Shown piece by piece: positions 1 to 38,639 of a stretch of DNA of 64,000 nt. Every line of letters begins with the position of its first letter. Within the stretch, counting starts at the first letter, position 1. Origin of the DNA: Auanema rhodensis (Eukaryota > Animalia > Nematoda); contig OZ059896.1 in assembly GCA_964057225.1 (NCBI GenBank), positions 12,834,001 through 12,898,000 of the forward strand, read 5' to 3'. Made by a program: the position numbers and the translations under genes. The notes beneath the pieces are model-generated. The model was not told the DNA's origin. It saw only the letters and a list, made by a program, of their open reading frames with translations, and ran no database searches.

Positions 1-1010
1 GGTTGAGAATACTGATAGCGTAGTTCACGAAGTAATTCTTTTGCTTTATATACCACAGAACGTGGATCTCCAAATGTGAAGTTGAGATAGTTTTGATATA
101 CTGTGAATATCAAAAATTCGAGTGGTGGCACATATTCTGTTTCGGATAAGATTGCAGGTATTTGTATCAATTCCCATAATTTATCTCTTGCAACCAAAAT
201 TGTAGAATTGCCTGGTTTAACTATTCTTTTTATATAATTGATAGGAAGTCGGTGTGCTAGTTGACCGATGACAAAACTAGGCTCCATTTGTTCGATCCAC
301 ATTTTTGTAATCATCTTGCTTTCTTCTCCTCCTAGAGCATGTAGTAAGAGAATATTCGGATCGCGGAAGTCTTTTAAATTTGCCCAGTAATCTATAGTGT
401 GCTTGGGGTGTGGGTGTTTTCCAAACTACTGAACCATCTCCAAATGTACAGCTTCCCATTTGAGCTTTACAGCCTTCTGCGTTGACAATTAAGTCAGATA
501 CAATAGTATTGTCCTTTAAATTTGTAATAACTCCTCGCTCCATCACAAATTGAGTTAAGTTGGCGCATTAAGTAAAACTGAAGAAACGTTCCGGTTCATA
601 TACTGGCTTAGGAGCTTCATATGTAAGTGGATTAGCGCTCAACAGTTTTTCATTTTTCCATTTCTTGTCTCGAGCAGCTATACGGCATTCTTCTACAGAT
701 ACATATCCATTACCAATGATGGTGTCGTTGTTTTCTCGGAACCAAAATTGATCCGTTACACATAATCGATAGATGCGTGTATAACACTTCCACGCTTCCC
801 ATGTTACGACGGTTTGTTTAGGAATGAACAATTCAACGTTAACTTGATGAGCTTGTTGAATTGCTTTCCGTTGGCATCCTGTTATCTCTGGTGGTGTCAT
901 CAGAAATCCTCCTTTATGAGCTAAACATAGTTGATATGAAGCATTCACAGTGGGAAGCAGAAATGTGCAGATTATTGTTGTGAGCAGGAATGGTAATGCA
1001 ATAGTATTTA
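1..1010 (-). pseudogene. env: env-like glycoprotein of element A (class III fusogen-like), broken by stops, frameshifts and deletions
   Basis: Signal peptide IALPFLLTTIICTFLLPTVNA|SYQLC, then GGFLMTPP..C, WEAWKCY, GCKAQMGSCTFGDGSVVW and basic SRRRRK (ORFs 568-948 and 277-546); aligns by eye with 30497-32975. Confidence 0.75.
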
Positions 1011-1936
1011 TATTGAATCGAGGTTTCCATCGTCTTTGATTGCCTTGATTCTCTTTTGGATAATTGTCGCGATTATTCCTAGAAAAGTTGTCTCGATTTT
1101 CTCTTTGATAATTGTTGCGAGTTTCTCTCTCGAATGATGATGACTCTCCATTGAGTAGTTGTTTCCATAATTTTGTCGAGGGCCAGAGTTCCTGCTGAAT
1201 TTATTTTTGAAATTCCTCCAAGGGTTTCTTGAATTGTTGCCATTGTTCCGTTCGAAATCTCGTGGCTGCTGATGGTTTTACTGCAGAAATCAACTCTTGC
1301 ATAGTTGAGTTTTCTTCATGCTGTTTCTTATAGTTAGCACGAATTGCTTCTTCAAAACGTGCTGTCCTTTTTGCTTCCTCAAAAGTCTTCGGATCTTTTC
1401 CTTGAACAATTATGCCTAAATCAGCGTTCAATCCATTTAAGAAAGCTGATCTTAATATGAGCTCTCTTTCTCGATCAGTTGGGCTCATAATACTGGAAGC
1501 CATTTCTTCCAAGTATGAGGCAAACTGAGTAACAGTTTTCTCTCCTTGCGTCGAGCGTAGCAACTTCGCGATCGTGAAATTCCTTTCCGTGGCAGGGCAA
1601 AGTAACTCTGCCAATTGTGAAACAAGGTCTTTCCAAGGCCCTCGTTCACGAATTTCGGAAGGAATCGAGTTATATGCAGAGATCGCAGAATCATTCTGCT
1701 GAAGCAGCAGAGGAAGAATCGTATTTGGGGCAGTGTGGACTGCCTAGAACTTTTGTTAAGGTTTTGGTCAACTCTGGAGATGCCATTAAATTAGGCGTTT
1801 CCAGAGTTGAATCTCTGTTTGATTGCTCATGTGGTCTCATGTTGAGTAGGAGCTTCAGAGGTAGTTTTTCGCGCTGGGGAGTTTTTTCTTCTTTCGGTGT
1901 TACAGCCAAGTGTGTTGGCGTTTTTTCGTCGTCCAA
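1011..1936 (-). pseudogene. gag: gag of element A (fragmented)
   Basis: CPKYD, MHR-like QGEKTVTQFASYLEEMA and AFLNGL motifs, then an N/R-rich region; frameshifts and a deletion relative to element B. Confidence 0.8.
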
Positions 1937-2901
1937 TGGACTTAAATCGTTGTCAAACGAGTCGTCACTATCGGGAAAAGGAAATCGAGAAATACGATTT
2001 CTCTTGTCTCTTAATCTTTGAGAGATACGGAAAGGCGTATCCGTATAATTATTCTTGGAGGTTGCCGTTTTGGAAAAGGAGGAAAGTCAGAACAATCTAC
2101 AATGTAAAATAGTGGAATAAGTTAGTAAACAAGATAAGAATATGAATAGTTGATAGTGAATAAGCTAGTGAATAACATGAAAAAAAAATTGAAGAAGAAA
2201 AAAAAAGATATATAATAATATGGGTTGAAGATTAATTAATTAATGAATTCATAGAAAAACAAACTATAGAGAGGACAAAAAAAAAGTGTGAATATAATTA
2301 ATTGTTAAGATGATGATAGGATATGATTATGTGACAATGTGATTCATAAATTAGAGAAGTGAGTATGGCGGACAAATCAAAATCTCAATTGTTACTGAAT
2401 AACAATGAATTACCAAACAAGGCATCTTTCAAATTCCAAAGTCTTTGTTTCAACTTGAATCAACAATCAAAAAATTATGAGAGGAAGGTTTAAATTCAAA
2501 TATGACAAATGATACAGCGGATGTTATTTTCTTACAGTGGCCATTCTGTTAGTACAAACTTGTAATCTTTATCAAAAATATCGCAAATTGACTTTATTAA
2601 GGTCCAATTTTGCTTATATCAAACAGCTTTTCCATTTCCAAAAAATATATATTTTTCGCCACAATGAAAAATCAAAAATACAACTGCGCAGAAACAAAAA
2701 GAAATCGAAAAGTTGGCCAATTCAGTATCTCACCCTTGCGCAAAATATCAACCCTGTTTATTAAAAAAATGAGTGAGACCCTTCGTACTGAATTGGAAAG
2801 AGAGGTGGTAGCCCAGGGAAATAGCTCAAAAAAATATATTCTCTTTAACTGAATGATAATTCATAATTTAATCGAGTTCGAAAAACGTAAAAAGATTCTA
2901 A

Positions 2902-2914
2902 GGTGGAACCTCCA
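2902..2914 (-). promoter_or_regulatory. primer binding site, tRNA-Gln (TGGAGGTTCCACC)
   Basis: Directly inside the LTR; complementary to GGTGGAACCT-CCA; identical to the PBS at 35241-35253. Confidence 0.85.
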
Positions 2915-9705: not shown

Positions 9706-9758
9706 AAAAGGGAGGATTGAATCTCATATATGACAATTCTCTTGTGAGATATTACAGT

Positions 9759-10610: not shown

Positions 10611-10620
10611 GGTTCCGTGG
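10611..10620 (+). pseudogene. 5' 10 nt of a second tRNA-Gln copy, cut inside the A box
   Basis: GGTTCCGTGG with about 50 bp of conserved upstream flank, followed by unrelated sequence. Confidence 0.85.
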
Positions 10621-17408: not shown

Positions 17409-17906
17409 TTTTGCTCTAAATATATATGTTCTTCTACTTTCTTTGTTAAGTGGGTACAACTGAACACTCTACTTGCTTTTTCGAGAGAAACGTTTACAGA
17501 TATATCGATTAACAATCTGATCACAAGAAATTACATTTTGAATTATACATTAATGAAAATTTAGAAAAATCAAAGTAGAGAATATAATGAGATAAGACAG
17601 AAATGTCTCTAGAGCAATCAATCTGGGTAGGAGTAAAAAACGTGTTATGTCAGCCTCATTTTCTAAACGTGGCTTGTTTGGGCATCGGTTACTGGAATAG
17701 CTCGCACATGTGCAGCATGTGCTTGCCGATTTGACAGTGAAAAAATAAATATACCGAAAAAAACTAAAAGAAACAATAAACTAGTATAAGGTTTTCTTCT
17801 GCTTGCTAGTGTAGTAAATATTCATCTTCGAAGACTCAAAGTTCCAGACAAAAACTAAAGAGAATCTGTGAAACATATATCGGCCAAAACAAAATACAAA
17901 AGTTGA

Positions 17907-18248
17907 AGGTTCCGCCGAGATTTGAACTCGGGTTTTTGAAGATAGAGGGCTCTTCAAATAGCCTCCCAGGTTCACACTTTCTATTCTATGCCCTGTTTAC
18001 ATAAAAGACTATTATAAAAAGAAAGATTCATTAAGATAACATACATATACTACATCATACGCTACAAAGACTGGAATAATTATAAGAAGACTAGATAGAC
18101 ATTGCCAAGTAAACTAAAGATGGTTATACGAAAGGGCAAGTAGGAAAACGGTGGTTCAGACTAGATGAGTCATACGATATTCCGCCGAGATTTGAACTTG
18201 GGTCGCAGGATTCAGAGTCCTGAGTGCTAACCACTACACCACGGAACC
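17907..18248 (-). pseudogene. tRNA-Gln(CTG) copy disrupted at its 3' end by an insertion
   Basis: 18180-18248 holds tRNA nt 1-69 (lacking the final CCT); 17907-17933 holds the duplicated 3' end, followed by the normal downstream flank. Confidence 0.9.
17934..18179. mobile_element. 246-bp insertion flanked by a 24-bp direct duplication of the tRNA T-arm; origin unknown, LTR-like composition
   Basis: TTCCGCCGAGATTTGAACT(C/T)GGGT at 17910-17933 and 18180-18203; absent from the intact unit. Confidence 0.7.
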
Positions 18249-18310
18249 ACTGTAATCTGTCACAAGAGAATTGTCATATATGAGATTCAATCATCCCTCA
18301 ACGCACCCAT

Positions 18311-20072: not shown

Positions 20073-21063
20073 TCACAACTAGCCACCGTACGTAGAGAGT
20101 TGATCAACCGCTTGTACGCATGAGAATGGAAACCGCGGGAGAACAATCTTTTCTTGAAGACACTCAAGCTATTATGATCGATCTCTACAATAACGATGGA
20201 GCGTGCATATCTGCCCCATGCATTATAATGGATAAGGTTTTCTTTCAGCCATTTAACCGCAACACTGTTCATATTGCAGCTGGACAACTACACACTAGTC
20301 GGCGAGAACAGGTCAATAACCAGAAGTGCAATCTCTGTCTTGGCAATCATTCTCCCACCAAATGTTATTCTATTCAATCGGTAGAAGAGAAGAAGAAGAT
20401 AGCTGTATCCAAACAGCTATGCTTCAAATGTTTTTCAATGACACACTCAGCCATTGGATGTCACGCACCGAATTGTCACCGCTGTGACAAAACACATCAT
20501 GAGTCTCTGTGTCAACGCGATTCTCGCTTCCGGAGTAATAGTAGGACTAGAACTCACTCGAAGGATAGGATGAATCGGCATCCACCACAAACGTACAAAG
20601 GTTTTGAGGCTAATACAAGAAGATCACCTCATCGGAACAACGAAAACAACAGAGAAAACCGCAGTGCGTCTATAAAACAATACAGAGCTCACTCCTCACG
20701 CCAACATATCTTGACTGCTACTGCACTCACTAACCCTTACGACCACATTTCAAATACACCAGGACCAGTCAATGACAAGGCCTTTGAATTCAGAAGAAAC
20801 CACGTTGGAGTAGTCAGTGTGACAGTATTTGATTGCCACGGTAACCCACACCATGTATACGCCTTGTTGGATTTGTGATCACAACTAGCCACCGTACGTA
20901 GAGAGTTGATCAACCGCTTGTACGCATGAGAATGGAAACCGCGGGAGAACAATCTTTTCTTAAAGACACTCAAGCTATTATGATCGATCTCTACAATAAC
21001 GATGGAGCGTGCATATCTGCCCCATGCATTATAATGGATAAGGTTCTTTCAGCCATTTAACCG
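19453..21063 (+). repeat. 806-bp tandem duplication inside BEL 2
   Basis: 19453-20258 repeated at 20259-21063; both copies share the TGA next to the protease catalytic motif. Confidence 0.95.
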
Positions 21064-22542
21064 TTAAGACTGACAAATGCTGATCAGCGTTTTATACGCC
21101 AAAACATTGGCTACTTATCACGCAAATTGAATGATCCTATAGAGGTTGATATCATCTTGGGCATTGCTGAGGTCCATGCGAGTACCATCTATGATGAACC
21201 AATTATGCAATTGCCAAGCTGCAATCTAGTCGCTCATCCCACTTTTTTTGGATATACACTATCGGGAAGGTATGACTTAGATACCAACAACCCCACATAC
21301 GCGGATAGTGTAATCGCATGCACAACAAAAATACATGACGATGTTGACAAAAATGTGGAATCCATGGAATCTATTGGGATTCGAGACAACATATCAATCG
21401 AAGAAGAAGAACAAGGGGTACTGAGCCAGTTCAATGAACAAGTAAAAAAGACATGTGAAGGCGTACACGTATCCTTTCTGTGGAAAGAAAACAAACATGC
21501 ACTGGCCGATAACTACAGTATCGCATTAGCAAGACTGCGACAACAATTCAATCACGCAAAGAGCAATCCCGAGAATACAATGAAATTTTTTAACAACAAT
21601 TGGAGAGTAATATCATTGAAGACGCACCAATTCACCCTGATAGCTCCCCAACTTATTATATACCGCATCAAGCGGTAGTTAAGTTGTCGAGTAACACTAC
21701 CGAAGTACGTATAGTACTTGATGCATCCTCTCATCGATGAGGAAAATTATCATTGAATGATGTTATACATCAGGGTCCCACAATTTTACTAAATCTATCA
21801 GGTCTATTGTTACGGTTTCAGGTTTGGAAAATACATAATCATCAGTGACGTTGAGAAGGCCTTTCACTTGGTACATCATAATAACACCGAAAAATACGCC
21901 ACTCGATTTCTTTGGCTTCACGATCTTTCGCTACCACCTGAACAAGATAATATACGGGTGTTGCGATTTAACAGAGTACCATTCGGAGTCAATGCTTCTC
22001 CATTCCTCCTAGCTGGCGCAATTCAATTTGGGCTGAAATCCCATTCAGACACACAACTTACGTTGTATCATAGATAATCTTTATGTAGACAATCTCATTC
22101 TCACCTTTGATGAGACCTCACAAGGAGTAATATTATACAGAAAGTGTAAGTCTGCGTTCAACGATATGAAGATGAACTTGAGAGAATTTTGTACTATGAC
22201 ACGAACACTATGAAATGCATTCCAAAACAGGACAAAGCAGAGAACGTACTGCAAAAAGTTTTGGGAGTTTATTGGGACTCACACCAAGACACATTTAGTC
22301 TTGCACTTCAAATGGATTATACAGGTAACAGTATAACCAAGCGACTTGTACTCAGTAGAGCACACAAAACATTTGATCCAGTAGGATGGTTGAGTCCTTT
22401 AATCTTATTATCAAGACACTTCTTACAAAAACTGTGGGCACTCCGTTACGGGATGAACCAATCTCTCCCGACCTTCAACGTGAATGGAAACAGATATGCA
22501 GTTCGGTTCATGAATACCGATACCACGTACCTCGAAACATGT
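20800..22542 (+). pseudogene. pol: BEL 2 pol (protease-RT), fragmented
   Basis: DIILG, TFFGYTLSG, YYIPHQAV, RVPFG, YVDN, KVLGVYW motifs spread across frames. Confidence 0.85.
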
Positions 22543-23439
22543 ACCTACTACAACACGTTTTGGTGTATGAGACGTGAATAATATATTATTAGGTGAATCC
22601 AAGCGGCCTCCTTCTATGAAATAAGAGCGCATTTTCACTGATGTCATGGGGTAGTGTATTCGATCCTTTGCGAGTTTATCTTCTATAGCCATAGCTAATC
22701 CAGCGTTCAGATCAAACTCTTGAATAAGCAAGTGCACATCGTTGATATCTATTTTCAGGTTTGGAAACTCCTCCTTCATTGCAGCATCCTTGCTTTCATT
22801 ATTCCAGCCTAGAGTGTCAATTAAAAAGTTATCACGGTTTGGATATGCAGTTAGCTCCATTTTTGAATAGTTTACAATCAGTCGCTCTTGATTAAATAGG
22901 TCGATACTGACGGGAGCAGCCATCTCACACAATATGCCATTTTTTACAAGCGTTTGACGCGTTCTAAATCCAGCACTGGATGCATTATCTATATATCTAT
23001 CAGCAAAATAGCCTGATATGGCAAGTTTGCTCTCTTTAACATCGTTGCTATACATTAAAATATTCTCGATATATGTTTTATAGGCATGATTCACGGTAGA
23101 GTCATACACGCTAACATCGCCAATTTTCAAATGATACGAATGTATTAAACTGGCAGCAAATCGTTGATATGGTGCAAAAACAAGGTTGTCTGGTACTGGA
23201 TCACCGTTTGTGGTTACAATTTTAAATTTTACATTCAACCAACATCTTCTCAGATTGAGGAATGATTTGGAATTTTGAGCTATAACAAATTCCCATGGTC
23301 CTTGAGGAAGAAAAGTATTTTTCAAAGGGACTTGTACAGTACGAGTGGATTCAACACCTAATGCCGACGCAGGTATATCACCATAGTTGATATTAGGTAA
23401 AAGGGCTTGTGCTGATTTTGAATCTATCAATTTAGCCAT
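22543..23439 (-). pseudogene. MCP: Maverick major capsid protein (double jelly-roll), C-terminally truncated
   Basis: GPWEFVI..SFLNLRRCWLNVKFKI, HAYKTYIENILMY, DLFNQERLI, IHYPM, PKRVVVG; then switches to antisense BEL 2 sequence. Confidence 0.88.
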
Positions 23440-23892
23440 TTAAATGTGAAACGACCGCTCACGAGTGATGCACAACCGCTTATGAGGTTTTGTGGTTTTG
23501 CGTCGTCGCCGTTTGCCCAAGCCGGTAAGATCTCGTATAGCTTGCCGGCCGGCTGTTTTAAGAGTTTCCTTGATATTATCGCCTTTCAGCACCCCATTGA
23601 CAATTTCATTACCAGTTTCCAGCAACTGTCCGCCAAGAGGTGAATTTACAACTGGACTATTGCTTACAGCACTGGATAAGGCGTTTCTTCCGGCATTGAT
23701 GAGATTTTGGGCTATAGGTGATTGAATGATGCGTGGTAGAAATGATGCCAAAGTTGCCAAAATACCACCCAAACCATGACCCCTCTGCATTCCACGTTGA
23801 AACATCATTCCGCTAAATGGGGCGCCACCCATTTGCTGATTTAAAAGTGTTGTCCATTGAATAGAGTTGACATCCAAAAGGAGGTGCGGCAT
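23440..23892 (-). CDS. Maverick core-like protein with adenain-type cleavage motifs
   Basis: QQMGG, QRGHGLGG, LTGLG followed by KRRRRK; stop codon abuts the MCP start. Confidence 0.75.
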   Translation of the reverse strand: MPHLLLDVNSIQWTTLLNQQMGGAPFSGMMFQRGMQRGHGLGGILATLASFLPRIIQSPIAQNLINAGRNALSSAVSNSPVVNSPLGGQLLETGNEIVNGVLKGDNIKETLKTAGRQAIRDLTGLGKRRRRKTTKPHKRLCITRERSFHI

Positions 23893-23943
23893 ATCGAACC
23901 GCACGCGCGCAATACAAAAGTTACACTAGATCATTCTACTAAA

Positions 23944-24398
23944 ATGTATTCGTCTGAAATAGTATCACTATTGCAATCTGTTCCCAGCACTCGGAAACTG
24001 TTCCTCGGTGTATATAGCGCTGATACTCTACCCAAAACGCGTCGAAAAAACTTTGCACTTGTCGTAAATACTGACACACATGATAAGCCAGGCACACATT
24101 GGCAGGTCATCTTTGTCCGTAACAAGCAAGCCTATTTTTTCTGTAGCTTGGGATATAAAATGAACAAGTACATCAAAATTATCTGGCCAAATATAAAAAG
24201 GTAAAAATTAATACTTGCAAACCACAACGTTTAATTGAATACACTTGTGGTGGCTATGTGGTATTTGTAATACTAATGTTGTCGGCTGGTAATTCATTTG
24301 AAAGCATTTGTTCATTTTTTAAACTATTGAAAAATGATGATGTCTTTATTAAAGCGTTTATGCATAAAGTATTCGACTATAAATTGGCTACTATATAA
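23944..24398 (+). pseudogene. PRO: Maverick adenain-like cysteine protease (frameshift near 24178)
   Basis: FLGVYSADTLP, VVNTD..PGTHW, YFFCSLG, then in the shifted frame PQ..YTCGGY and NDD. Confidence 0.88.
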
Positions 24399-24651
24399 GA
24401 AATTTGTCATTAATAACCTGCTACATTACGTGGTCAGTTATGAATATTCCTTGTCACTGTGAATTATGTGTCAAATACACGTTGGAGCAATCTAAACCAG
24501 CGCCTTTATACAGGAGAATATTGAAATGTATTTGAGTGCCATTTATTAAAGGTATAGCATTGGGATTGGGCTTTTGTACAACACTAGTCATATTATTGCT
24601 CATTATATAAAAGTGGGTTGATGGCGTGTGGTCGTTTTTCATTTTCCTCTA

Positions 24652-25116
24652 ATGGAACTTTTATGTAACAAATATTGTGGTACATGCAAGGAAATATTTT
24701 CTTCAACCAAGCATTTTAGTGATCACGTTTTGAAAAGGCATGCAGGGATTCAACCCGTATGTAACAATTATATCAGCAATGCTGACTTTATTCAAAAATA
24801 TGGACATTTGGATGGTGTTCGTAGACGTTTGTGCCCTCATTGTAGTGAAACTTTTGGAACAAGATTCAATTGTGAGCGTCATATTCGGCGTATTCATAAT
24901 AATAATGGAACGAATGGTGAAGATGGTGATGGAAATGATACCAGCAAACCCTTTGAAAAAGCTGAGGAGTTTGTACATTCAACCCAATCAAAAAGATGCC
25001 GCAGCAATAGTGACGGAGAACATTCACAACACGAGCCGAGCGACAAACAAAACTGCCCTAAACTATCTTTTAAACCTTCGAAAATAAAAATGTGGTATTG
25101 TATAACTGTTGAATAA
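24652..25116 (+). CDS. two-finger C2H2 zinc-finger protein (Maverick cargo)
   Basis: CGTC-x12-H-x4-H and CPHC-x12-H-x4-H; TATATAAAAG at 24604; AATAAA overlapping the stop. Confidence 0.75.
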   Translation: MELLCNKYCGTCKEIFSSTKHFSDHVLKRHAGIQPVCNNYISNADFIQKYGHLDGVRRRLCPHCSETFGTRFNCERHIRRIHNNNGTNGEDGDGNDTSKPFEKAEEFVHSTQSKRCRSNSDGEHSQHEPSDKQNCPKLSFKPSKIKMWYCITVE

Positions 25117-25121
25117 AACGT

Positions 25122-25757
25122 TTATTTCATATTTTTAACATGCAATGTAACAACTGTAGAACCATAATTAAATTGCATAGGACGACCAAATTCATCTAAA
25201 ATTTCAATACGTATGGTATCGAGTGTTTGTCTAGTGATTGGTACATAACGAATAGGATTAAATGTTTTGGCAATCATTTTACCAAATTCAGTAGGAGGTG
25301 GTACAGGTAAACATGCAAGTAAATTAGCTTTCACATTACCAAGAATGGAATATTCTACAATATCACAATATATATACATTGTATTAATGTTATTTGAAAA
25401 ATCAATGGGACGCCTAGCTATTATTGTATCGTTGATGTTTTTATTTTCAAAACCAAGAAAATATGCAAAATCATCACCAAGCGTTGCATTCATTAATACT
25501 CGCTTGCTTGTTACAAACTCTATGCGCTGCAATGTTTTGTTAAACTGAAATGTGGCGTCTGCGAGCATTTCCTCCACTAGCTTAGCCTCAGCCTGGCGAT
25601 TATTATACCATTTTTTTACATCTTCATCTTTATCTATTAAACTTTTTATACGTGCTTCTTCCTCAGCTCCAAGAGGCTTTGTATTGTTGGCGATAAATGA
25701 TTCTCTTCCAGCATTGATTCCGCGTATTATTTCATCACCATTTGCATAGTTGCCTTT
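25122..25757 (-). pseudogene. mCP: Maverick minor capsid (penton) protein, C-terminal part
   Basis: LAYFLGF-like FAYFLGF, MYIYCDIV, YVPI, IRIEILDEFG, VVTLH; joins in frame with 35635-35856 once the Gypsy insertion is removed. Confidence 0.88.
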
Positions 25758-25761
25758 AGGC

Positions 25762-26142
25762 CGTTACATATCGTTTCTTCCCGTCTTTTCATGGTCGGAA
25801 GATATATGTACTTCTACCTTGTTCCTTAGGTAGGCAGACCCGAACGCCCTGATTTCCTTATTAAGACAAATACTTAAAGAGAAAAGGATTCATTATCAGA
25901 TAACAAGAAAATACAATATAAGAATTACATTAAGAAAGAATATAAAGATATATAATAAAGTATTAAATAGAGAATATATATAGATGATATAGAGATGAGA
26001 CTCACATGACTATAAGACAACCTATCTGGGTTAGACCAGAAGCAAGAGTGCCATGTGTGTCCCATGTTGTAGGCGGGGCTTGTTCAGGCTCCCGCTATTT
26101 GAATAGCGCGCACATGTTCACCATGTGCTAGCAGATGTGACA
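25762..26142 (-). repeat. 3' LTR of element B
   Basis: Matches 35254-35634 with one mismatch seen. Confidence 0.97.
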
Positions 26143-26158
26143 TCCCCCCACCTTAAAA
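26143..26158 (-). promoter_or_regulatory. polypurine tract (AAGGTGGGGGGA)
   Basis: Purine run directly preceding the 3' LTR TG on the minus strand. Confidence 0.85.
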
Positions 26159-26740: not shown

Positions 26741-28017
26741 TCAAGAAATTGTGATAACCGGAATAGATGTTGTCCGTTGGTAAGGTTTGACGAAATCCTT
26801 GTGTACTCTTCTGCTTTTTCCTTTATCTGTTTGAACCACGACGAAAGATCTTTGAACTGCTGTAACTAAATAAGGCCCTTCGAATGAAGGTGTTAGTTTG
26901 TTTCGAGTAGAATTCACTTTTATCATAACTAAGTCATTAATCTGAATTTCTTTATTTTGTGTTCTATTTCGTGTATTGTACCGTTGTTCATTCTTCTTTG
27001 TGCATGTTTCAATTCTATCTTTTACTATATTAGATGTGCTTTCATTTTGTATTAGCGATCTATTGACAAAATCTTCTGTAGGATTGGCTGGTTCTTCAGT
27101 TTGAAGATTATTTCCAGGCAATTGATGGTCAATAGTAAGTCTTGCATCCCGACCAAATAATACAACATATGGACTAATAGATGTTGATGAGTTTGGTAAC
27201 GTATTGATCGCAAACATAACTTTGGGTAGGTGTATATCCCAGTTAGTTTGTTGTTCATTCACGAATGAAGAGAGAGCTTCTTCCAAAGTTCTATGAAGTC
27301 TCTCAACTTGTCCATTAGCATTTTTATAATATGGTAGCGTAGTAGTGTGTTTAATTCCAAATTGTTTACACATAGCTTGAAATTCAGATGACAAAAAGCT
27401 ACTACCATTATCGGTTATCATACTCATTGGTGGTCCATATATGAAAACAAATCTAATTACAAACGCTTTTGTGATTTCAGTAGCCGTTTGTGTTATTAAT
27501 GGGCAAGTTGTTCCCCATTTACTAAAAGCATCTTGAATACTCAAGATGTATCGATGTCCATCATTAGTGCGAGGTAAAGGACCTAGTATATCTACATGAA
27601 TACGATCAAATGGCTTTTCGGGTATAACAAATCTTCCCATAGGTTGAATATACGATTGGTGTGGGTTAGATTTCCTACTTGCACATTTTGTACAACGATT
27701 AATAAATTCAGTTATTTGTGGAACCATATTAGTCCAAAAGAATCGTCGTCGAATCGCATCAGTAGTTTTATTTATACCTAGGTGTGCACCAATTTTGGAA
27801 TCTTCGTGAAAAAATTTGATGACAACATCAGTTATTTTGTCGTTTCGAGGCAAAATAATAGATGGTTTTGAATAATTTTTCGCTTGTTTTGCATGTAATA
27901 TGCTTTCTCGTTCTTCATACCGGTCTGATATATTAGCCGGACAGTTATCATTATTAATTTAAGAAAGTGCTTCGCGAATCCAGGGAACTCCAGCTTGAAC
28001 TTTCCGTATTTCTTCAC
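26741..28017 (-). pseudogene. int: Gypsy integrase (frameshifted from RT/RH)
   Basis: H..AHLG..C..C, HVDILGP, ITDNGS, VERLHRTL, FEGPY. Confidence 0.92.
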
Positions 28018-29380
28018 AATTTAGTTGGTCAATAGAAGAAATAGTTGTGATATGAGCAATAAAAGCATCAACAGGTTTTACTTTGTCCTTTGGTTTAGTA
28101 GGACGACTGTCATTTGCTTCGTTTCCTATATACCTGGAGAGAGCATCACAGACACTGTTTAATTTGCCAGGACGATATTCAATCTTCATGTTGAAATCTT
28201 GTATCATTAGTTGATACTTGGCTAATCTACCTATGAGATCTTTACGCGACATTAAACTGGTTGATGGTCGGTGATCTGTGATAACTGTGGTAGGTACTCC
28301 TAATACATAGGTACGGAATTGTTGAAGAGCAAAGACTAAACCGAGTGCTTCAACTTCAATAGGAGGATATTTCCGTTCCGCTGGAGTCAACTTTCTACTA
28401 GCGAACGCAACGATCATACTGCCATCACTTTCTATAACAAAAGGTTGGTCTGCTTTAGGAGGTTTCAGTACAGGGGCAGTACACAGTAATGTTTTTAAAG
28501 TTTTAAATGCGTCTGCATGTTCCGATTTCCACTCAAAAGGAGTATCCTTATGTGTTAACTTATACAATGGCTTATCTATTCCGGCATAGTTTTGAATAAA
28601 CCGTCGAAAATAGTTAGTCATACCTAGAAAGGATCTGACAGCCGTAACTGTACTTGGATTTGGAAATTCGGAAACAGCCTGTATCTTAGCAGGATCTGGT
28701 TTAACACCATTTCTACCTATTACAAAACCCAAAAACTTTACTTCAGTGGCTGCAAAGCAACATTTAGATAACTTAATTTTCAACCCTAGTTCAGTGACCT
28801 TTTTCAGCACTTCTTGTATATCTCTTAAATGTTCTTCAGCTGAGTTCGAAATTATTAGCAAATCACCTAGATATACAAACAGTTTGCATCTAACAAGTGA
28901 TTGCAAGTATCGTACTGCGGATTGAAAAGTGTGTGGCGCTCCACACAATCCCATAGGCATTCGGCAATACTGATAGGTACCTGATGGAGTGGTAAAAGCA
29001 GTTAGGTATCTATCTGAGCGTTTCAACGGTATTTGGAAGAAACCAGAAATGAGATCAAAATTCGAAAAGAACTGAGCTCCAGCCGCTAAGTCTATGATAT
29101 CAGGAATGTGTGGGATGCTGTATGTTTGTTTCTTAGTAACACTATTCAATGCTCTAAAGTCAGTAGCGAACCGGAAAGAATTATCTTTCTTTTTAACAAG
29201 AACAACCGGACTAGTGAAAGTAGCCGTCGAATTTTCGATTATACCTTGCGACAACATTTCTTTCACTTGCCGTTCTACTTCTTCTTGCTTACCCAATGGT
29301 ACTCTGTAAGATCTACTTTTTGGAAAATCCATATCAGATCTTATAGGAATGGCATGTTCAACTGGTCCGCAAAAGAGGTT
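27959..29380 (-). pseudogene. pol: Gypsy reverse transcriptase / RNase H, inactivated
   Basis: SPVVLVKKKD, DFRALN, DLISGFFQI, MPMGL; catalytic YxDD reads YLGD; RNase H lacks the GAVL strand after ESDGS. Confidence 0.92.
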
Positions 29381-29650
29381 CAGGTGGAACTTAATCGTTC
29401 ATAATTTCTTTAGATGCTATAAGTCCTGAACCAATGTGGTCATTTTTATTAATTTTAATTGGCTTTGAAGAATTGTTTGATACTACCATAGTAATAGGAA
29501 AAGGTCCTATGGCGGCATCTGAAATTGAGATAGGACCTGTGCTAGATTTTAAAAGAGCATATTGATCAAAATCTAATTCTGGTCCTGTTTGCAAAGATAT
29601 GTGGGAGGTACTATGTGGTGGAACTGTTACTGTGGACAAACTTATGATAT

Positions 29651-30496
29651 TTACTGTTTTAGTTGTGGTTTTATATGCAAAACAACCAGGTTTACTAAGG
29701 TTGTTTCCATATTACCAACAATCAACTTTCCTTTACATAGTTTTAATGTAGTAAATATCTCTCTTTCTTCCAACGTACGCATAAAATCAGTACCAAGTAA
29801 CATTTGTCCTGGACAGTCATTGTCTTCAGATATTAAAAATTCGTGTTCCACTTGGTAACCTGCTATACCCACATCTAACTTGCATTTTCCCACAAAGCGA
29901 AACTCTGATCCATTTGCAGTGGATGCAGATCTAGAATATTTTGTAAAATATTGTCTTCCAATATATGCCAATGTGGAAAACGGAATATATGAGACCGTAG
30001 CTCCAGAATCCCATAATTCTAACAGTCCTCTACCTTCAATGTCAATATGAACAAACGGTAACATGTGTCCATCTTTCTTTGTTGTTGTGTGACATACAAA
30101 AGGTATGGCTAAAAGAATGTAAGTTATGATGGTGGGAAAATAGCTCCGCATCAATTCATCACTAACTGTTTCATGAATCTCATCTCCCTCAAGTGGTGGA
30201 GCTGTTGGGCTCAACATGATATGGTTTATTTTTAACATAGAAGTAGGGGAGAGATAACATTTTATAGTGAAATATAATGCTATCATTAGACATAATATCA
30301 GAGTTATACAACCGATGGTAATGAGTGTTCGTTCAATTGAACCTATACAAAAGTCAATGAACAGATCTCAATTGGAGAAAACAATTTTCCTGGCATCTCT
30401 TATAAGTTTACTTCCTTTGAAGATGAAAGAGGAAATTTGAGGCCAATCATGTGAACGAGAAATTACGCGGAGAAGATCATGGTGAGGTGAAGTAGA
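29651..30496 (-). pseudogene. env transmembrane anchor, cytoplasmic tail (PTAPP) and aspartic protease, in frame with gag-env
   Basis: Same frame as ORF 30497-34102 across stops at 30497-30499 and 30368-30370; TLITIGCITLILCLMIALYFTI, LWDSGATVSYI, MLLGTDFM. Confidence 0.85.
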
Positions 30497-33400
30497 TTAA
30501 CTATAACCATAAGTTAATCCAATAGATAAGGCTAAGGATTTTTCAGTCGAATTTTCAAACAAATTCCGCCCTGTTAATCGAAGTTTACTTTCTGAATGAA
30601 TACTATCTACTTTATGTGTGTCACCTTTATAATCTCTCCATGTTCCATTTTCATACCAAATCTCTGTCTCTTTGTGTTCACAATTGATCTCATGTCCTTC
30701 AGTGCTCAAATCGTAGCTATCGATAGGAGCAAAGAATAATTGTTTATCGTGTGTTAAAACAGGGGTCTCTGCATAACATTTATCATTGTAAGAATGATTA
30801 CGATAAATGAAATGTGGTTCTATTTCCTGACAAGTTGTTATTTTTAAAACATTTCTTCCAACAAATCGGGCAACGATATCATCCCGCTGAAGCATAGCTC
30901 GTACTCCTATTGTAGGATGTATACGTAATATAGCTTGCCAGCTTTTTACAGTTTCCATTTGAGATTTACAGATGATATGAAACTGTTGATGAAATTCGTC
31001 AATTATGGAGAGACGCGCTTTCTCAAACCCATAATTCAACTTATTATCTATTATCGTTTTAGTTTTATGCTCTGATTTGTGGAGAACATTGTCATATACT
31101 TCTGCTACATACAACTCTCGACCTCTCTCGTACGCATTAGGGGTAGGAGTTGTTAAACTACGAATTGTAGTTTTGGTGGCAGTTATTGGGGTTACAGTAG
31201 TATGCTGTACCATATTTTTATCAGTTGTGATTTGAGTTTTAACCCAACTTATGAATTCTAAAACTACTGTTTTATTGAATTTGGGATTTTCCTGTGGGTA
31301 TTCGATGGACTGTGGAGGAAATCCATAATATGCTGTACTATTCTTTGTATAAAGGTTGTGATAGTCAGGCAGCTTAGATATAATTGCTAAATCTTGCTCT
31401 TGGTTGTTTCCAACAGTAGCATCAGCTTTTTGTTGTCGACTGACTTGCATGTCACAAGATATTTGTTCTTTTCCCAATTGTTGTTGGATCATGAATAACA
31501 TGCCTTGAGCAGTTGCAATAATTTCAGATTGATTCATATTTCCACTGCGTGGTAATATAGATGGATATAAGGCTCTTACCAACTGTTCGATTGATGGAAC
31601 TGTTTGTGTACCATCAAGAATTGTGGCTTGATATACTACTGCGTGAGCCATTCCTCGAAAGAAGTCTTCTATGGATGTTGTAGATTTCATCAACGATCTT
31701 TTTAACCGAGGAACTTCTATACGACGAGCTACTTGAGTGATAAGATCATCCAATTTCATGCTAATCATCTGTCTAGTAGCCAGTTTAATTTCCTCTATAC
31801 CCATACATTGTAAAATCAAAAGATTGGGATCTTTGAAATTATTAGACTTTGCCCAGTTAGTTATATGATCTTTTGTCAATCCTAAACTAACAATTGTGTC
31901 AATGAACAGTGGATTATCTATCGCGAATTGGAGCAAACTTTCATAAGATGATGTAGCTGCATATCTCATATATTTTGCGTAAAACTTAGTGATAGATGCA
32001 GATCCAAAAATGAAAGTAGGTCTTAGAAAGGGAAACGCATATGGTTGGGATTTCGCATTAACAAAAAGATAATCATCACTGAAAGAGCGATGTTTTTGAG
32101 GTAATACATTACGTTTATTTCTGCGTCTATCAGCATTAAGCAAAGTATTGGAAAGATCAAGCAAATTATAAACACGGGGATATGCTGTGAATCGGATAAT
32201 TGCCTCAGAAGATGATTCAAAAACAGCGAATTCGAAACAAGATTGAACGTGAGCGGATGTGGAATGATTTTGGAGAACAAAAGCGCTTTCAATAGAGTGA
32301 ACTAGAAGAATATGATCACCCAACATGGCGGAGAAGGGGCCAAGTTTTTGATAGTGACAGACAACTGATGGGATAGGTGGTTGCCAGATAACTGCACCTT
32401 CACCAGTTGCACAAAACCCTTCATTTCCTTTACAATTATCAGTATTTATAAATAAATCTGATACAATGTGATCTTCTTTCAATCTAGTTATTATCCCTCG
32501 CTTCAATACAAATTGTTCAATTTCTACACATTCTTCAGTGGACCACGAGCGAGTTGGATTATGCTCGTTTAATGGTGTTTCAAAAACTGAATGCAGTTTG
32601 GCATTCATGATTTTATCATTCCACATACGATTTCTATGTGCTCGAACACAATCTTTTTTATCTACTGTTTCAAAATGAGAGAATGTGGTGTTACGATCTC
32701 TCAAAAACATGAAATCTCTCACACAACTTTTATACTTTTTCACATAGCATTTCCATGCTTCCCATGACTCTATCTCAGCCTTTGGTAGATATATTTCTAC
32801 CTCAACACTGTGAGCCTTTTCGATTTCTGCCTTATGGCAGCCTGTGACTACAGGAGGTGTTACTAATATACCCCCTTCAGATTGAGCGCAAATCTGATAT
32901 TTTGCCGACCCAAAGGAAAGGCATGAGAGTGCCAATAAAGTCAGGCACAACGTGACCGGTGGCATGAATGGGGTCGCTACGTTGTATACCCTTGAGTTAC
33001 CATTCCCATTGGCTGATGGTCTTTGTCTTCTTGGGGAACTAGGCCTAGGGTTCCAAGACGAGCTATTGGCATTTCTGCCATTCGCAAATGGGCGGTTTCC
33101 CGGGTTAGGACGCCTATTCATATTCCCGTTCTGCGAGTTATTATTATTATAACGTACGGCAGAAGGTCGCTCTCTCTCTCGCTCATAATCATTAGAGCCA
33201 TTATTGTGCTGAGTCCAGTTATTATTTTTTTTATAATTTTTATAATTTTTATTATTATTATTATTCCTACTTCTTTCTCTTTGTTCACTAAAGCTTAATT
33301 TATGCTGTAAAGCATTTATGAGCTCCTTCAAGGTGCTGGTGTCTTCATTTCTTTTCATGAAGCTATTTCGAACGTCTTCTTCAAACCTAGCTAATTTCTT

Positions 33401-34102
33401 AGCTTGTTCATAAGTGACGGGGTTTTTAGTTAAAACCGCAATACCCAGTTCCTCTTTTAAACCATTTAAAAATGCCGTTTTCAACATTGGTTCCCGCTCG
33501 GGATCCATTGGTGACATTATGGTGCTTGCCATTCTCTCCAATTCCATACTAAAATCAAGAACAGATTTATCTCCTTGTTGTACTCGATGAATAAGCGCTA
33601 TGGTGAAATTTTTATCTGTTTTAGGCGCTAAAAGCTCAGTGAGCTGATCCATCAAAACAATCCATGGGCCATTAGTTCTTATGCCACTAGGAATACTATT
33701 ATACAAGGAGAGAGCTGTTTCGTTTGATTCCAAAAGAAGAGGTAAAATTAATAGTCTCTCAGGTAAGCTTAGAATCATAAGATTAAAAAATCTATTTAAA
33801 GATTCAACAAAAGAACGAAAGCTACGAGAGCCGTCATACCTGGGACAGAGATAGCAATTTAAAATAGTTGCCATATTTCTAGAGGGTGGAGCAACATTAG
33901 AATTAGGAGATGGAGAGGTAGGAGTCATTTTTCTTTCAAAAGCTTTAGTTATAGCAGCGGCCCACCGACTTGGTGATCTATTTCGTACTGTAGTAGGTGC
34001 CCGAGGTGTTTCCTCAGTGATGGCCTTTCTGCTTTTACTTCTCGTTCTAATTGTTAGAGAAGAAGAGTGAGAAGAAGAAGAGGAATCACCTTCTTCTCTC
34101 AA
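30497..34102 (-). CDS. gag-env: Gag fused through an internal signal peptide to a class III (herpes gB/chuvirus G-like) envelope ectodomain
   Basis: Gag: CPRYDG, QGDKSVLDFSMELERMA, AFLNGL. Signal VTLCLTLLALSCLSFGSA. Cys-rich ectodomain with furin-like RRRNKR and RLKR, and IC..WQAILRIHPT.GVRA.L.RDDIVARFVG..C..CY..TPV. The true start codon is uncertain (frame open from 34249, first ATG near 33929). Confidence 0.82.
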   Translation of the reverse strand: MREEGDSSSSSHSSSLTIRTRSKSRKAITEETPRAPTTVRNRSPSRWAAAITKAFERKMTPTSPSPNSNVAPPSRNMATILNCYLCPRYDGSRSFRSFVESLNRFFNLMILSLPERLLILPLLLESNETALSLYNSIPSGIRTNGPWIVLMDQLTELLAPKTDKNFTIALIHRVQQGDKSVLDFSMELERMASTIMSPMDPEREPMLKTAFLNGLKEELGIAVLTKNPVTYEQAKKLARFEEDVRNSFMKRNEDTSTLKELINALQHKLSFSEQRERSRNNNNNKNYKNYKKNNNWTQHNNGSNDYERERERPSAVRYNNNNSQNGNMNRRPNPGNRPFANGRNANSSSWNPRPSSPRRQRPSANGNGNSRVYNVATPFMPPVTLCLTLLALSCLSFGSAKYQICAQSEGGILVTPPVVTGCHKAEIEKAHSVEVEIYLPKAEIESWEAWKCYVKKYKSCVRDFMFLRDRNTTFSHFETVDKKDCVRAHRNRMWNDKIMNAKLHSVFETPLNEHNPTRSWSTEECVEIEQFVLKRGIITRLKEDHIVSDLFINTDNCKGNEGFCATGEGAVIWQPPIPSVVCHYQKLGPFSAMLGDHILLVHSIESAFVLQNHSTSAHVQSCFEFAVFESSSEAIIRFTAYPRVYNLLDLSNTLLNADRRRNKRNVLPQKHRSFSDDYLFVNAKSQPYAFPFLRPTFIFGSASITKFYAKYMRYAATSSYESLLQFAIDNPLFIDTIVSLGLTKDHITNWAKSNNFKDPNLLILQCMGIEEIKLATRQMISMKLDDLITQVARRIEVPRLKRSLMKSTTSIEDFFRGMAHAVVYQATILDGTQTVPSIEQLVRALYPSILPRSGNMNQSEIIATAQGMLFMIQQQLGKEQISCDMQVSRQQKADATVGNNQEQDLAIISKLPDYHNLYTKNSTAYYGFPPQSIEYPQENPKFNKTVVLEFISWVKTQITTDKNMVQHTTVTPITATKTTIRSLTTPTPNAYERGRELYVAEVYDNVLHKSEHKTKTIIDNKLNYGFEKARLSIIDEFHQQFHIICKSQMETVKSWQAILRIHPTIGVRAMLQRDDIVARFVGRNVLKITTCQEIEPHFIYRNHSYNDKCYAETPVLTHDKQLFFAPIDSYDLSTEGHEINCEHKETEIWYENGTWRDYKGDTHKVDSIHSESKLRLTGRNLFENSTEKSLALSIGLTYGYS

Positions 34103-35240
34103 AAATTCAAAAGGAGAGAGGTAGGTGGATGGAGTATTTAAGTTTTTAGAATTAAATTCAAAAACTTGGCGTACCTCTGGTGATCCTTGTTCCTGATCTT
34201 TGCTTTCCTCGCTGATGTCCGAGTCCGACAGGGTGGCTGGTGAATAAAGTTAGATGAATATAAGAGCGCGTACTGGAAGCAACTAGACTCCAGTAAAAAC
34301 GTTTGTGACAATGGCGTCTGATGAAGGAGGATCGTTGAAGCTTCAAGCTCCGCCTCCAGCCATGTGTCACGACACCAGATGTTAGCGCTTATGGTAAACA
34401 ACCATTGACCGTCTGTCGTGATATTTGAATATTATAATCACTAATGTCAGCTTAGAGACAAATAAGGAATCACAGATGGTGCCTTAAGCCTGTTTGAAAA
34501 CTTTTGAATTTTAACAGCTGGTATTGACTACACATGCCGAACAGCTGGTACGCGTGGGCCAACTATTTGAATGTGAGTAAGCTTAAAGTAAACAAAAATG
34601 TCTCATCTCGTATATTAAGTTCAATTTTATAAAGTTTATTAAGATTTGTAGAAATAATTTCAAAATAAATCTTAATTAAGATAATTTTTAATTTAATTTC
34701 AAAAGATTGAGAAGGTAATTTAAGATTGATATAGGAATTTAAATTTGGTAATCTGTCAATAATATAGGAAAAAGGAAACGTTGGCAGACGTAGAGTGGAC
34801 TTGGGTGGGTAGGAATTTAAATATTCTTATTATCTCTGAACTAATAAGAAAAGAGTTAACAGGAGTCGAACCCTGATGAACCCTTGGATGTGAATCAAAA
34901 TCAAAAAGTCGTAAATTAAATTATCCCAACAGCCTCCAGCTTCCAAACAACTCAGCTAAAAAGTGAGCTCTGTTGCCACACTGGACATTCACATCATAAA
35001 GTAATGAATCAAAATAGCACGCGTGCATAACAAAAAGGTAACGCTCGTCAAAACTATTGTCTGATAGTTTCCCCAAACGTCTCAGACACCTCCCAGTTTT
35101 CGTTGAGCGGAGGAGAAGTGGTAGCCAAAATAATTTTTGGGGAAATCATGGTGCACGGCTCGGTTACTCCTCACTGTTGGGCAATTAAGTCCAAAAGTCT
35201 CGTAAACTTGCTGTCAATAAATTAACAGTAAAGTGAGCAA

Positions 35241-35253
35241 GGTGGAACCTCCA
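35241..35253 (-). promoter_or_regulatory. primer binding site, tRNA-Gln (TGGAGGTTCCACC)
   Basis: Abuts the 5' LTR. Confidence 0.88.
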
Positions 35254-35634
35254 CGTTACATATCGTTTCTTCCCGTCTTTTCATGGTCGGAAGATATATG
35301 TACTTCTACCTTGTTCCTTAGGTAGGCAGACCCGAACGCCCTGATTTCCTTATTAAGACAAATACTTAAAGAGAAAAGGATTCATTATCAGATAACAAGA
35401 AAATACAATATAAGAATTACATTAAGAAAGAATATAAAGATATATAATAAAGTATTAAATAGAGTATATATATAGATGATATAGAGATGAGACTCACATG
35501 ACTATAAGACAACCTATCTGGGTTAGACCAGAAGCAAGAGTGCCATGTGTGTCCCATGTTGTAGGCGGGGCTTGTTCAGGCTCCCGCTATTTGAATAGCG
35601 CGCACATGTTCACCATGTGCTAGCAGATGTGACA
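35254..35634 (-). repeat. 5' LTR of element B (381 bp)
   Basis: TGTCACA...TGTAACG; direct repeat of 25762-26142. Confidence 0.97.
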
Positions 35635-35856
35635 AGGCAAGTGTAGAATAAATTTTCTATTGGAAAAACGTAGTGTATAAGATAAATCTTTTTGAACATT
35701 TAATATAGAACAAGGAAAAATGATGTCTGTCAGCCCAATGCAATATCTATTATTGCGTAGCCTTAGTGTTTCAGGTAATCTGGTAAGAAACACTGATGAT
35801 GTATTACTTTTTTCAGAATCAACTGATGATGGAAGAGTAATGTAAAAATCGTCCAT
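35635..35856 (-). pseudogene. mCP: Maverick minor capsid protein, N-terminal part
   Basis: MDDFYITLPS..NTSS.F.TRLP..L..YCIGLTDIIFP, the typical Polinton penton start. Confidence 0.88.
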
Positions 35857-35935
35857 GACAAACCACCACTTGATACGTGTACACTATTGCAAATGAAATC
35901 ATTTGCATTTTAGGTACATTTACGAGTGGTTGATT

Positions 35936-36581
35936 ATGGTTTTCAGCTTCAAACTACCCAGTCAGACAACTGTAATAGGTGCTACCCAATGCGTTAAAAC
36001 AACTCTCATGAAGCACATATGCGAAAATACTGAAAAGTTTTTCAACGTCCCCATTGAGAATATTCTGGTTCAGTCAATGTGGGTCATCGTCAGGTGTACC
36101 AATAAATGATGAGCGTTTAATAATTATTCAAGGGCCTCCTGATCCTGATTTGATAAAAGAACAAAAGGGAGTAAATACTATACTAGTGCTGGATGATTTG
36201 ATGAACTTTTTTTCATCGAATAAAGCAGCAAAGGAATTACTCAACAACATTTTTACAGTGTGGGCACATCACTGGAATTTGGCAGTGTTTAATCTTGTGC
36301 AAACGGCATTTCAACTGGACAGGACCAGTCGAATCAATAGTATATATATAATACTGATGAAAAGTCATTCAGATATATTACAAATACGTAATTGTCTGCA
36401 GCAATTATTTGGGCCACGTTTCAAAAATGCTCTAGAAGCGTATGATGATGCAATGTCTACTCCCTATAGTCATTTACTGATTGACAATCATCCTTTAACA
36501 AGTGAGAAGCAGCGTATACTATCTGATATAACAGCGGAGAACCCTATTGTTTATGTTGCCAGAAATGTGTTTAGTGTTTAA
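35936..36581 (+). pseudogene. ATP: Maverick A32-like packaging ATPase (frameshift near 36064)
   Basis: Degenerate Walker A GATQCVKTT, Walker B ILVLDDLM, HHWN..NLVQ, SRINS.YI, PYSHLLID.HP. Confidence 0.9.
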
Positions 36582-36593
36582 AGTGCTTGTTCA

Positions 36594-36902
36594 ATGAGTG
36601 GTCGTATTTTGTCAAATTTCAACTTTTTGTCTTCTTGCGCCAAAACTCCTTGTTCTGTTTCCTCATTTTCTTTTGCACAAATTGAAATTATTGTTGAAAT
36701 TGTATTTAATATTGTGAAAAATAATAATTTTCTTTTAACTAACAAGGAATATAAAACCCTCTTGCCCATATCTTCATTATTACGTCAAATAGCTTTGATA
36801 CGCACACCGGAAAAGGCTAAATCATTATTGGCAACGCTTTCACACAAACAATTGAAAACAATAGTTACATGTGGTATCGCCTATTTTGGTTTTAAATCAT
36901 GA
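36594..36902 (+). CDS. Maverick small hypothetical protein
   Basis: Tightly packed ATG ORF between the ATPase and the next gene; IVEIVFNIVK resembles conserved small Polinton ORFs. Confidence 0.6.
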   Translation: MSGRILSNFNFLSSCAKTPCSVSSFSFAQIEIIVEIVFNIVKNNNFLLTNKEYKTLLPISSLLRQIALIRTPEKAKSLLATLSHKQLKTIVTCGIAYFGFKS

Positions 36903-37615
36903 AGCTCAACCATAAGTATCGACTAATTCCTGTCGACGAGGAAACAATTAATATAGACAAGTTTGATGCAGAGCTCAAGCTTTTACGAGAAAATAGAGCT
37001 ATACCCGACTATAAAAAGGCTGAACTATACGAAGACTTGATTGCTCGTCTCAAAAACTATAGAGAAAGTATAGATGCGCCTATATCAGTACAAGTGGAAA
37101 ATGCTGATCCACCTCTATTGCCAGAATACAAGTTGCCAAGAAAGTATAACAATTTGTGGGAGAGATTTCCAGAGGTGCGCACAAACAAGAGTAATCAACT
37201 TGTGATTAATAATGAGGCTGTACCAAACACGAATATTACAAAAATTTTAGATTTTGTATTGGATAAAACAAAAACGGAGCCCAATGGATTTTCAGTCTTG
37301 TCAAAGTTTTTAGCCAGTAAAGGCGTACCTAGTTCTAACAAGAAACAAACTAGAAGAGAGTCGGCTGACAATGATTCAGTTGACGTTGTAGCTAGAGCTG
37401 AACCGGCTGTTACAGACTTGGACTCTACTATATTACCTAGAACGCCTCGTCATTGTAAAGCTGTTATTCGATATTCACCATCACCGGTTCGTACACTCAA
37501 AAGTAAAAGGTCAAAGACTTTTGATACTGCCGCCGAATCATATTACACACCACGGGAAGGAGACTCACAGAATGGCCAAGGTCGTAAAAGGTTCTACATT
37601 AGATTATGGAAATGA
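36899..37615 (+). CDS. Maverick hypothetical protein (238 aa)
   Basis: KYRLIP start, NQLVINNEAVPNTNI, C-terminal QNGQG protease-site-like motif; overlaps both neighbours. Confidence 0.7.
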   Translation: MKLNHKYRLIPVDEETINIDKFDAELKLLRENRAIPDYKKAELYEDLIARLKNYRESIDAPISVQVENADPPLLPEYKLPRKYNNLWERFPEVRTNKSNQLVINNEAVPNTNITKILDFVLDKTKTEPNGFSVLSKFLASKGVPSSNKKQTRRESADNDSVDVVARAEPAVTDLDSTILPRTPRHCKAVIRYSPSPVRTLKSKRSKTFDTAAESYYTPREGDSQNGQGRKRFYIRLWK

Positions 37616-38639
37616 TATTTTGGCGAGCATTTATTACGATATAAAACACCCAGCTTCATATACATCAGCCAAGAATTTATCATCGCAAGCACGAAAACAT
37701 GGCATTTCAAACGTACAAGTTGATGATTTTTTGCAAGATTCTGAAACTTTTACACGGCATAAACCAACCAGAATGCGTATGCAGACTAAAAAGACTAGAG
37801 GATGTGGTCGATTTCTAACAGTGCAAGCAGATTTGGTTGATATGCAAAAATATAAAAAATTAAACGACGGCTATGCTTACATGTTGACCATGATTGATGT
37901 TTATACACGCATGTTATATGTTAGGCCTTTGAAAACTAAAGGTGGTATAGAGGTTGCTAGTGCATTTGAAAGTTTATTCAAGAATTTTAAACCAATTCAG
38001 TTGATTACTGATAATGGCACAGAGTTTTATAATAGTCATTGTGAAAAACTATTCAAAAAGTTTGCCATACTGCACGGATCTACAAGTTGACCACAAAAGG
38101 CTGCAATGGTGGAGCGAGCAAATAGAACTTTAAAAACACGCATGATTAAATATCTCTATTACAAGAATAATCATCGATGGATTGATATCCTAGATGATTT
38201 GGTTGAAGGAATAAACAAATCTTATAATCGGTCAATTAAAATGCGGCCCATTGATGTTAAAGCAAATATATTCATTGAAGAATATGCATCAGCTGTTAAA
38301 AGCCGCTTTAAAATTGGTGATACTGTTCGCATAAGCAAAAATAGGCGTACTTTTGAAAAAAGCTACGAGTCTGGATATACAATGGAGCTATTCACAATTG
38401 ATGAGGTTGTAACCGGAAACCCAACCGTGTATAAACTTGTAGATTATAATGGTGAACGTATAAAAGGAATATTCTACGAACCTGAACTTGTCTTGGCTAC
38501 TAATAAAAGTAACAAGTACTATATAGAAAAAGTTTTAAAAGAGCGTACTCGAAGCGGTAAACGTCAAGTATTTGTAAAATGGAGTGGATATCCCGACAAC
38601 TTTGATGAATGGATAGATGCAGAAAATTTAAATGTATAA
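37572..38639 (+). pseudogene. INT: Maverick retroviral-like integrase with C-terminal chromodomain (one in-frame TGA at 38088-38090)
   Basis: YYD..HPASY, QADLVDM, IDVYTR, TDNGTEF, VERANRTLK, FKIGDTVRI, IEKVLK..VKWSGYP..FDEWI. Confidence 0.93.

Follow-up and report, generated by a model that had tools for sequence, protein, structure and literature searches.

A 64,000-nucleotide stretch of the Auanema rhodensis genome (positions 12,834,001 to 12,898,000 of contig OZ059896.1, assembly GCA_964057225.1; hereafter, the window) carries a retrotransposon in which an envelope gene (env) lies between gag and pol. This element is very probably a recently inserted, defective Ty3/gypsy copy of the published GAG-ENV-POL kind, whose relatives encode a glycoprotein B (gB)-type fusogen and Pol in one chain. 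The feature is real and its layout has already been described, so that the element is a new defective member of a published nematode family. The locus itself, as a broken copy of such a family, is of little weight; it extends the family to the lineage nearest Auanema elements and places two gag-env families within one 36-kb stretch. Possibly new are the protease-site-like motifs on both sides of env and a P[TS]AP motif in the Env tail, which, as sequence features, suggest a route of assembly from one chain. Together with a conserved signal and a single membrane anchor they make this route testable, and it is the part worth testing.

The element is defined by a minus-strand frame of 1533 codons (34249-29651) with internal stops only at 30499-30497 (TAA) and 30370-30368 (TGA), compared with about 105 stops expected by composition and with 113 and 170 in the other two frames. 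This frame encodes, in order, Gag, a signal, an ectodomain, a membrane helix and a protease, and is followed by reverse transcriptase (RT), by RNase H and by integrase; all domains share one frame except at the broken protease-RT linker. An initial annotation, made from the letters alone, had proposed a frame with only two stops, hydrophobic stretches on both sides of the ectodomain (found at about 32980-32900 and 30328-30263), an N/R-rich region free of zinc knuckles, a DSG protease and a downstream RT-RNase H-integrase block, and all of these were borne out. Scanning against Pfam revealed matches to gag-asp_protease (E 2e-7), RVT_1 (E 4e-33), RNase H (E 1e-21) and integrase (E 7e-15), as well as a match to Retrotrans_gag at residues 179-266 that falls below the cut-off (E 0.0015). 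No CCHC zinc knuckle was found in the linker behind Gag, which by its composition is likely the nucleic-acid-binding part. The knuckle pattern is present in only 12/52 linkers of relatives, and its absence is thus common in the family. Env profiles detected no env 3' of integrase in the element, and neither the leader (1325 nt) nor the sequence downstream of integrase holds an open reading frame (ORF) of 100 codons. The order of protease, RT, RNase H and integrase and the gypsy-type RT, which lies far from the BEL/Pao rows, place the element in Ty3/gypsy; a Pao-type pol with env after integrase, as in BEL/Pao elements, is not what it carries.

Long terminal repeats (LTRs), primer-binding site, polypurine tract and target-site duplication are all present (Table 1), as in Ty3/gypsy elements, despite LTRs that end in CG and not CA. 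In their supplement 1, Chary and Hayashi (eLife 2026, PMC13524379) list two Caenorhabditis elements with a tRNA-Gln 3' end whose reverse complement equals the first 12 bases of the primer-binding site. The two LTRs differ by 1 mismatch over 381 nt. The copy is broken by the two stops before the anchor, loss of frame in the linker, damage to the RT motif, a gap in RNase H and a stop at 27961. Three nonsense changes arising in place would predict 6.7 LTR mismatches, far more than the one observed (P 0.009), so the copy was probably inserted in an already defective state. LTR conversion or assembly error may be other causes of this discrepancy. With both stops ahead of the anchor and with a broken pol, the copy cannot act alone; it was probably copied using the proteins of an intact sibling. 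The initial annotation had mentioned neither the LTRs nor the additional lesions of pol, nor an insert of 350 residues that the ectodomain contains.

Table 1 Features of the gag-env-pol element and of a second, related element in the window (window coordinates).
Feature	Position	Strand	Basis or remark
Target-site duplication GCCT, left	35635..35638	-	
5' LTR, 381 nt	35254..35634	-	begins TG, ends AACG rather than CA
Primer-binding site, tRNA-Gln type	35236..35253	-	
Gag, first ATG at 33928, capsid domain	33350..33928	-	Pfam and sequence
N/R/Q/K-rich basic linker	32981..33349	-	48% N+R+Q+K, no CCHC
Internal signal sequence, predicted	32900..32980	-	hydrophobic stretch
Class III fusogen ectodomain (by profile and model), up to first stop	30500..32899	-	profile and model
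Ectodomain insert, 350 residues	31130..32179	-	partly helical, partly Thr-rich
First internal stop, ahead of membrane anchor	30497..30499	-	TAA
Second internal stop, ahead of membrane anchor	30368..30370	-	TGA
Predicted transmembrane helix	30263..30328	-	hydrophobic stretch
Inner tail; protease-site-like INHI at 30229, PTAP at 30208	30065..30262	-	motif search
Aspartic protease, frame shared with Gag and Env; WDSG at 30013	29750..30064	-	Pfam
Protease-RT linker, broken: leaves frame, shorter than in relatives	29379..29749	-	alignment
RT and RNase H; damage to the RT active-site motif, partial loss of RNase H, stop at 27961	27962..29398	-	
Integrase (zinc finger, core, GPY)	26741..27958	-	Pfam
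Polypurine tract	26143..26152	-	
3' LTR	25762..26142	-	LTR comparison
Target-site duplication GCCT, right	25758..25761	-	
Second element of a related family, more decayed	1..2914	-	same primer-binding site at 2914; leaves window at left end, env cut

Searching 1.84 billion representatives with the 800-residue ectodomain returned 242 matches at E 0.001, 150 of which were listed. An ectodomain profile of 80 rows (the window sequence, P0121 and 78 matches chosen for coverage and length) matched herpes gB chains at E 1.7e-14 and rhabdoviral glycoprotein-type chains at E 6e-5, with four chains named Glycoprotein at about E 1e-4. An AlphaFold model of the ectodomain reached a mean predicted local distance difference test (pLDDT) score of 72, with two conserved parts above 85; the score is high at residues 1-260 and 600-760 and falls to low values between them. 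Every PDB row listed by Foldseek is a gB (best E 5.9e-10), and the G proteins of Beihai rhabdo-like virus 3 and Midway nyavirus rank first among viral models. A second structure aligner matched 372 residues to prefusion Epstein-Barr virus gB (Z 14.1, root-mean-square deviation 5.9), and the model has the gB-like domain arrangement with a long central helix that characterizes class III. Judged by the fold of the model, the ectodomain is thus a class III (gB/mononegaviral G) fusogen, as the initial annotation had proposed by likening it to herpes gB and chuvirus G. A word-based search with the ectodomain gave no match at E 0.001 among 7001 candidates, and a single-sequence search of solved structures gave one unrelated match (E 0.058). 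ESM Atlas scores were all below 0.9 and fell mostly on baculovirus-F clusters, which we took as a generic fusogen signal rather than as a sign of an F-type fusogen.

The 350-residue insert contains two furin-like sites, RNKR (32122) and RLKR (31708), and its model shows no confident fold (pLDDT 49). Its length is not unusual, since the stretch between the two env halves measures 20-514 residues in 87 relatives. The insert is shared with an Auanema protein (26% identity, E 4e-13). Inserts at the furin loop form several lineage-specific groups between which no similarity was detected, and they may be receptor-binding parts.

Relatives of the element show the same arrangement. Among the best 120 of 544 RT matches, the closest are Auanema, Heterorhabditis, Caenorhabditis and Diploscapter proteins (52-64% identity, with 57-64% for the best), and the nearest named relatives are all nematode. 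A Pfam scan of 21 chosen RT relatives showed that 18/21 have a fusion domain of the gB or Monjiviricetes type before the protease and that 0 have one after integrase, and proteins of C. nigoni and C. brenneri are collinear with the window Gag, both env halves, protease and pol. Across the 267 proteins of the relatives set, 21 are single chains that comprise Gag, Env, protease, RT, RNase H and integrase, and 9 carry env downstream of integrase; all 6 of the latter that were scanned have BEL/Pao (Pao) marker domains. The findings that the initial annotation had named as fatal to its reading were absent from the gypsy-type relatives. Two or three tandem protease-like domains follow env in P0127, P0129, P0145, P0148 and P0210.

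A quick RT tree of 139 rows, built without the published sequences of PMC13524379, groups the element with nematode gag-env-pol elements. The RT of the element falls in a 13-row clade (Shimodaira-Hasegawa-like approximate likelihood ratio test support 100) nested in a 45-row clade (support 92), 34 rows of which have env before pol; 10 of the other 11 have a start too far along the chain for env to be visible, and 1 joins Gag to RT. Outside the 45-row clade lie 8/42 env-before-pol rows, which agrees with the statement in PMC13524379 that this order is not monophyletic.

The novelty implied by the initial annotation is not supported, because GAG-ENV-POL elements with a gB-type env have been published for nematodes, bryozoans and flatworms. 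The text of PMC13524379 calls these elements 'ancient errantiviruses', reports only an env of the HSV/gB type (HSV, herpes simplex virus) for those of Nematoda, Bryozoa and Platyhelminthes, and credits Sacco et al. 2022 (J Gen Virol, doi 10.1099/jgv.0.001739) for the nematode elements with flipped env/pol order. All 36/36 nematode rows of its supplement 1 have a gB-type env and 8/36 have a tRNA-Gln primer, 2 of them with a 12-mer identical to that of the window element. The element shares with the elements described there a Ty3/gypsy pol, env between gag and pol, an HSV/gB-type ectodomain flanked by signal and anchor, nematode hosts and tRNA-Gln; it differs in that the copy is broken and its nearest named relatives (Auanema) are absent from the 36 rows. 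That listing asks for an intact full-length RT and integrase, which the copy lacks, and this concerns the copy and not the family (PMC13524379). Env 3' of pol, which the initial annotation had given as the rule for retroviruses, errantiviruses and nematode BEL elements, is accordingly incomplete as a generality.

Other known systems share parts of this design. The non-canonical nematode endogenous retroviruses (NERVs) of Sacco et al. 2022 reportedly have one continuous gag-env-pro-pol frame with a nyamiviral-glycoprotein-like env, and are said to carry extra ORFs (a small protein and a helicase). Such an env fits the high rank of Midway nyavirus G, whereas the extra ORFs are not evident in the window element. 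Tas-like BEL/Pao elements, which are said to have a gB-like env, share the env family of the element, as do the mosquito elements with a chuvirus-type env cited in PMC13524379. These BEL/Pao elements differ by their Pao-type pol, an env at the 3' end and tails without P[TS]AP. Herpesvirus gB, nyamiviral and chuviral G and, as reported, Maverick MFUS-1 have the class III fold in common with the modelled ectodomain, but they are stand-alone glycoproteins with an N-terminal signal and are only 8-13% identical to it.

We then considered what the arrangement implies for topology. A hydrophobic core stands just before the ectodomain in 45/52 relatives, and a single membrane helix separates env from protease in 67/74, with both calls made by simple hydropathy rather than a trained predictor. 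We rejected a second membrane helix ahead of the protease, as a weak second segment appears in 5/75 rows only. With an internal signal and a single anchor, the Env part would be luminal, and Gag and Pol on either side of it would be cytosolic. The structural polyproteins of flaviviruses and alphaviruses likewise have, behind the capsid, an internal signal by which the envelope protein is directed into the endoplasmic reticulum (ER). The likeness is an analogy of topology only, because those fusogens are class II and have no homology to the window Env. The capsid-envelope polyprotein proposed by the initial annotation stands in part: relatives do encode one chain with an internal signal, but this chain continues through RT and integrase.

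Short motifs flank the env cassette. The pattern [VI]N-x-[VIL], which resembles the Ty1 protease site IN*NV as given in PMC6952103, is found immediately ahead of the signal in 15/49 rows and immediately behind the anchor in 27/73 rows, where shuffles predict 0.7 and 1.2 rows, respectively; the window element is among the rows in both cases. P[TS]AP occurs between anchor and protease in 10/72 relatives (0.2 expected) as well as in the window, and was found in 0/9 Pao-type env tails and 0/20 env-less pre-protease stretches. Neither PPxY (1/72 vs 1.2 expected) nor YPxL (4/72 vs 3.2 expected) is enriched in the tails. Because the relatives share ancestry, these counts are not independent.

These features suggest how one chain might build a particle. 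The chain would be threaded through the ER membrane and likely cut by host signal peptidase, with Gag kept in the cytosol and tied to the membrane by the env signal. The ectodomain would enter the ER lumen and be cut there by a furin-like protease, and the single anchor would bring the chain back to the cytosol, so that Pol would ride on the inner tail of Env and be packaged with it. The tail P[TS]AP may recruit the endosomal sorting complex required for transport (ESCRT) for budding, and the element's own protease would free Gag and Pol at the sites flanking the env cassette. We regard this whole scheme (i.e., an enveloped particle from one chain with signal-tied Gag, Pol as an Env tail, P[TS]AP-ESCRT budding, paired protease sites, swappable receptor-binding inserts at the furin loop and a fusogen that works without gH/gL-like helpers) as possible, though less likely than not. 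How gag-env-pol elements make particles and enter cells is given as unknown in PMC13524379; the terms 'polyprotein', 'late domain' and 'ESCRT' are absent from the main text of that paper. Word searches found no published account of a processing route, though the figures and Sacco et al. 2022 may hold one.

Several points weigh against these readings. For the element, the Pfam match to Glycoprotein_B (residues 1069-1160, E 0.00026) is below the curated cut-off, the model taken whole has low TM-scores (mostly 0.17-0.26), assembly errors may explain some breaks of the copy, and stops could have been spliced around in several one-chain relatives, which are gene models. For the route, [VI]N-x-[VIL] was picked after inspecting the sequences, the window copy has it after the anchor only (its Gag-side candidate YNVA does not match), and P[TS]AP is missing from 62/72 relatives. 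In addition, a single chain yields equal amounts of Gag, Env and Pol, and equal Gag and Pol is atypical for LTR elements. This last point would be met if, in the same family, Env and Pol came from spliced or truncated messages, the shared frame were no more than a form of storage and the full chain were a minor product, and the leader has room for splice sites. We consider this improbable, though the best of the alternatives, as a signal in frame behind Gag and a single anchor before the protease are the topology of one chain.

The positions of the lesions admit another explanation, in which the host keeps the 1250-codon front frame to make Gag together with a secreted fusogen that lacks an anchor and keeps related elements from entering, as do some truncated env genes of vertebrates. 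None of the five lesions that break the frame falls within the first 48% of the coding span (P 0.039, computed post hoc), and the first stop falls just past the folded ectodomain. The near-identical LTRs leave little time for selection, the pattern comes from one copy, and in the window's second family both Gag and env carry internal breaks; we thus judge host retention very unlikely. That env was instead picked up locally, from the surrounding Maverick-like element or a nested insertion, can be dismissed: the element does sit inside a Maverick-like capsid gene and nematode Mavericks are reported to encode a gB-like fusogen (10.1101/2022.07.12.499685), but relatives from many nematodes are collinear in Gag, env and pol, which refutes this origin, no second target-site duplication or frame change marks the env borders, and env profiles find nothing in the Maverick-like flanks.

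The gag-env-pol copy lies within a gene, the right half of which tentatively matches a minor capsid cluster of virophage type (score 0.91; Pfam family on 59% of members). The surrounding Maverick/Polinton-like element (22423-25761 and 35635-38639) is split by the insertion, with likely minor capsid halves on both sides and an integrase with chromodomain (Pfam). Other ORFs in these flanks presumably encode a packaging ATPase, a cysteine protease, a core protein and a major capsid protein, judging by their motifs. PHROGs gave no information on the flanks of the element. The second gag-env element at the left end of the window has Gag, linker, signal and the start of env in one frame, with Gag 55% and the N-terminal part of env 40% identical to those of the main element.

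Elsewhere in the window, a BEL/Pao element on the minus strand (3530-8952) has a long open gag (381 aa) and pol (1429 aa), with no env match by env profiles, and a decayed BEL/Pao-like element on the plus strand (18284-22581) has an internally duplicated zinc-knuckle and protease region. Between them, an inverted-repeat region (9709-18298) has two inverted tRNA-Gln(CTG) genes at its ends, the tRNA type that primes both gag-env elements, and contains three 153-codon frames spaced 1944 nt apart. Finally, positions 41024-64000 hold a satellite array in which a 176-nt unit, also present in 170- and 175-nt variants, recurs about 130 times.

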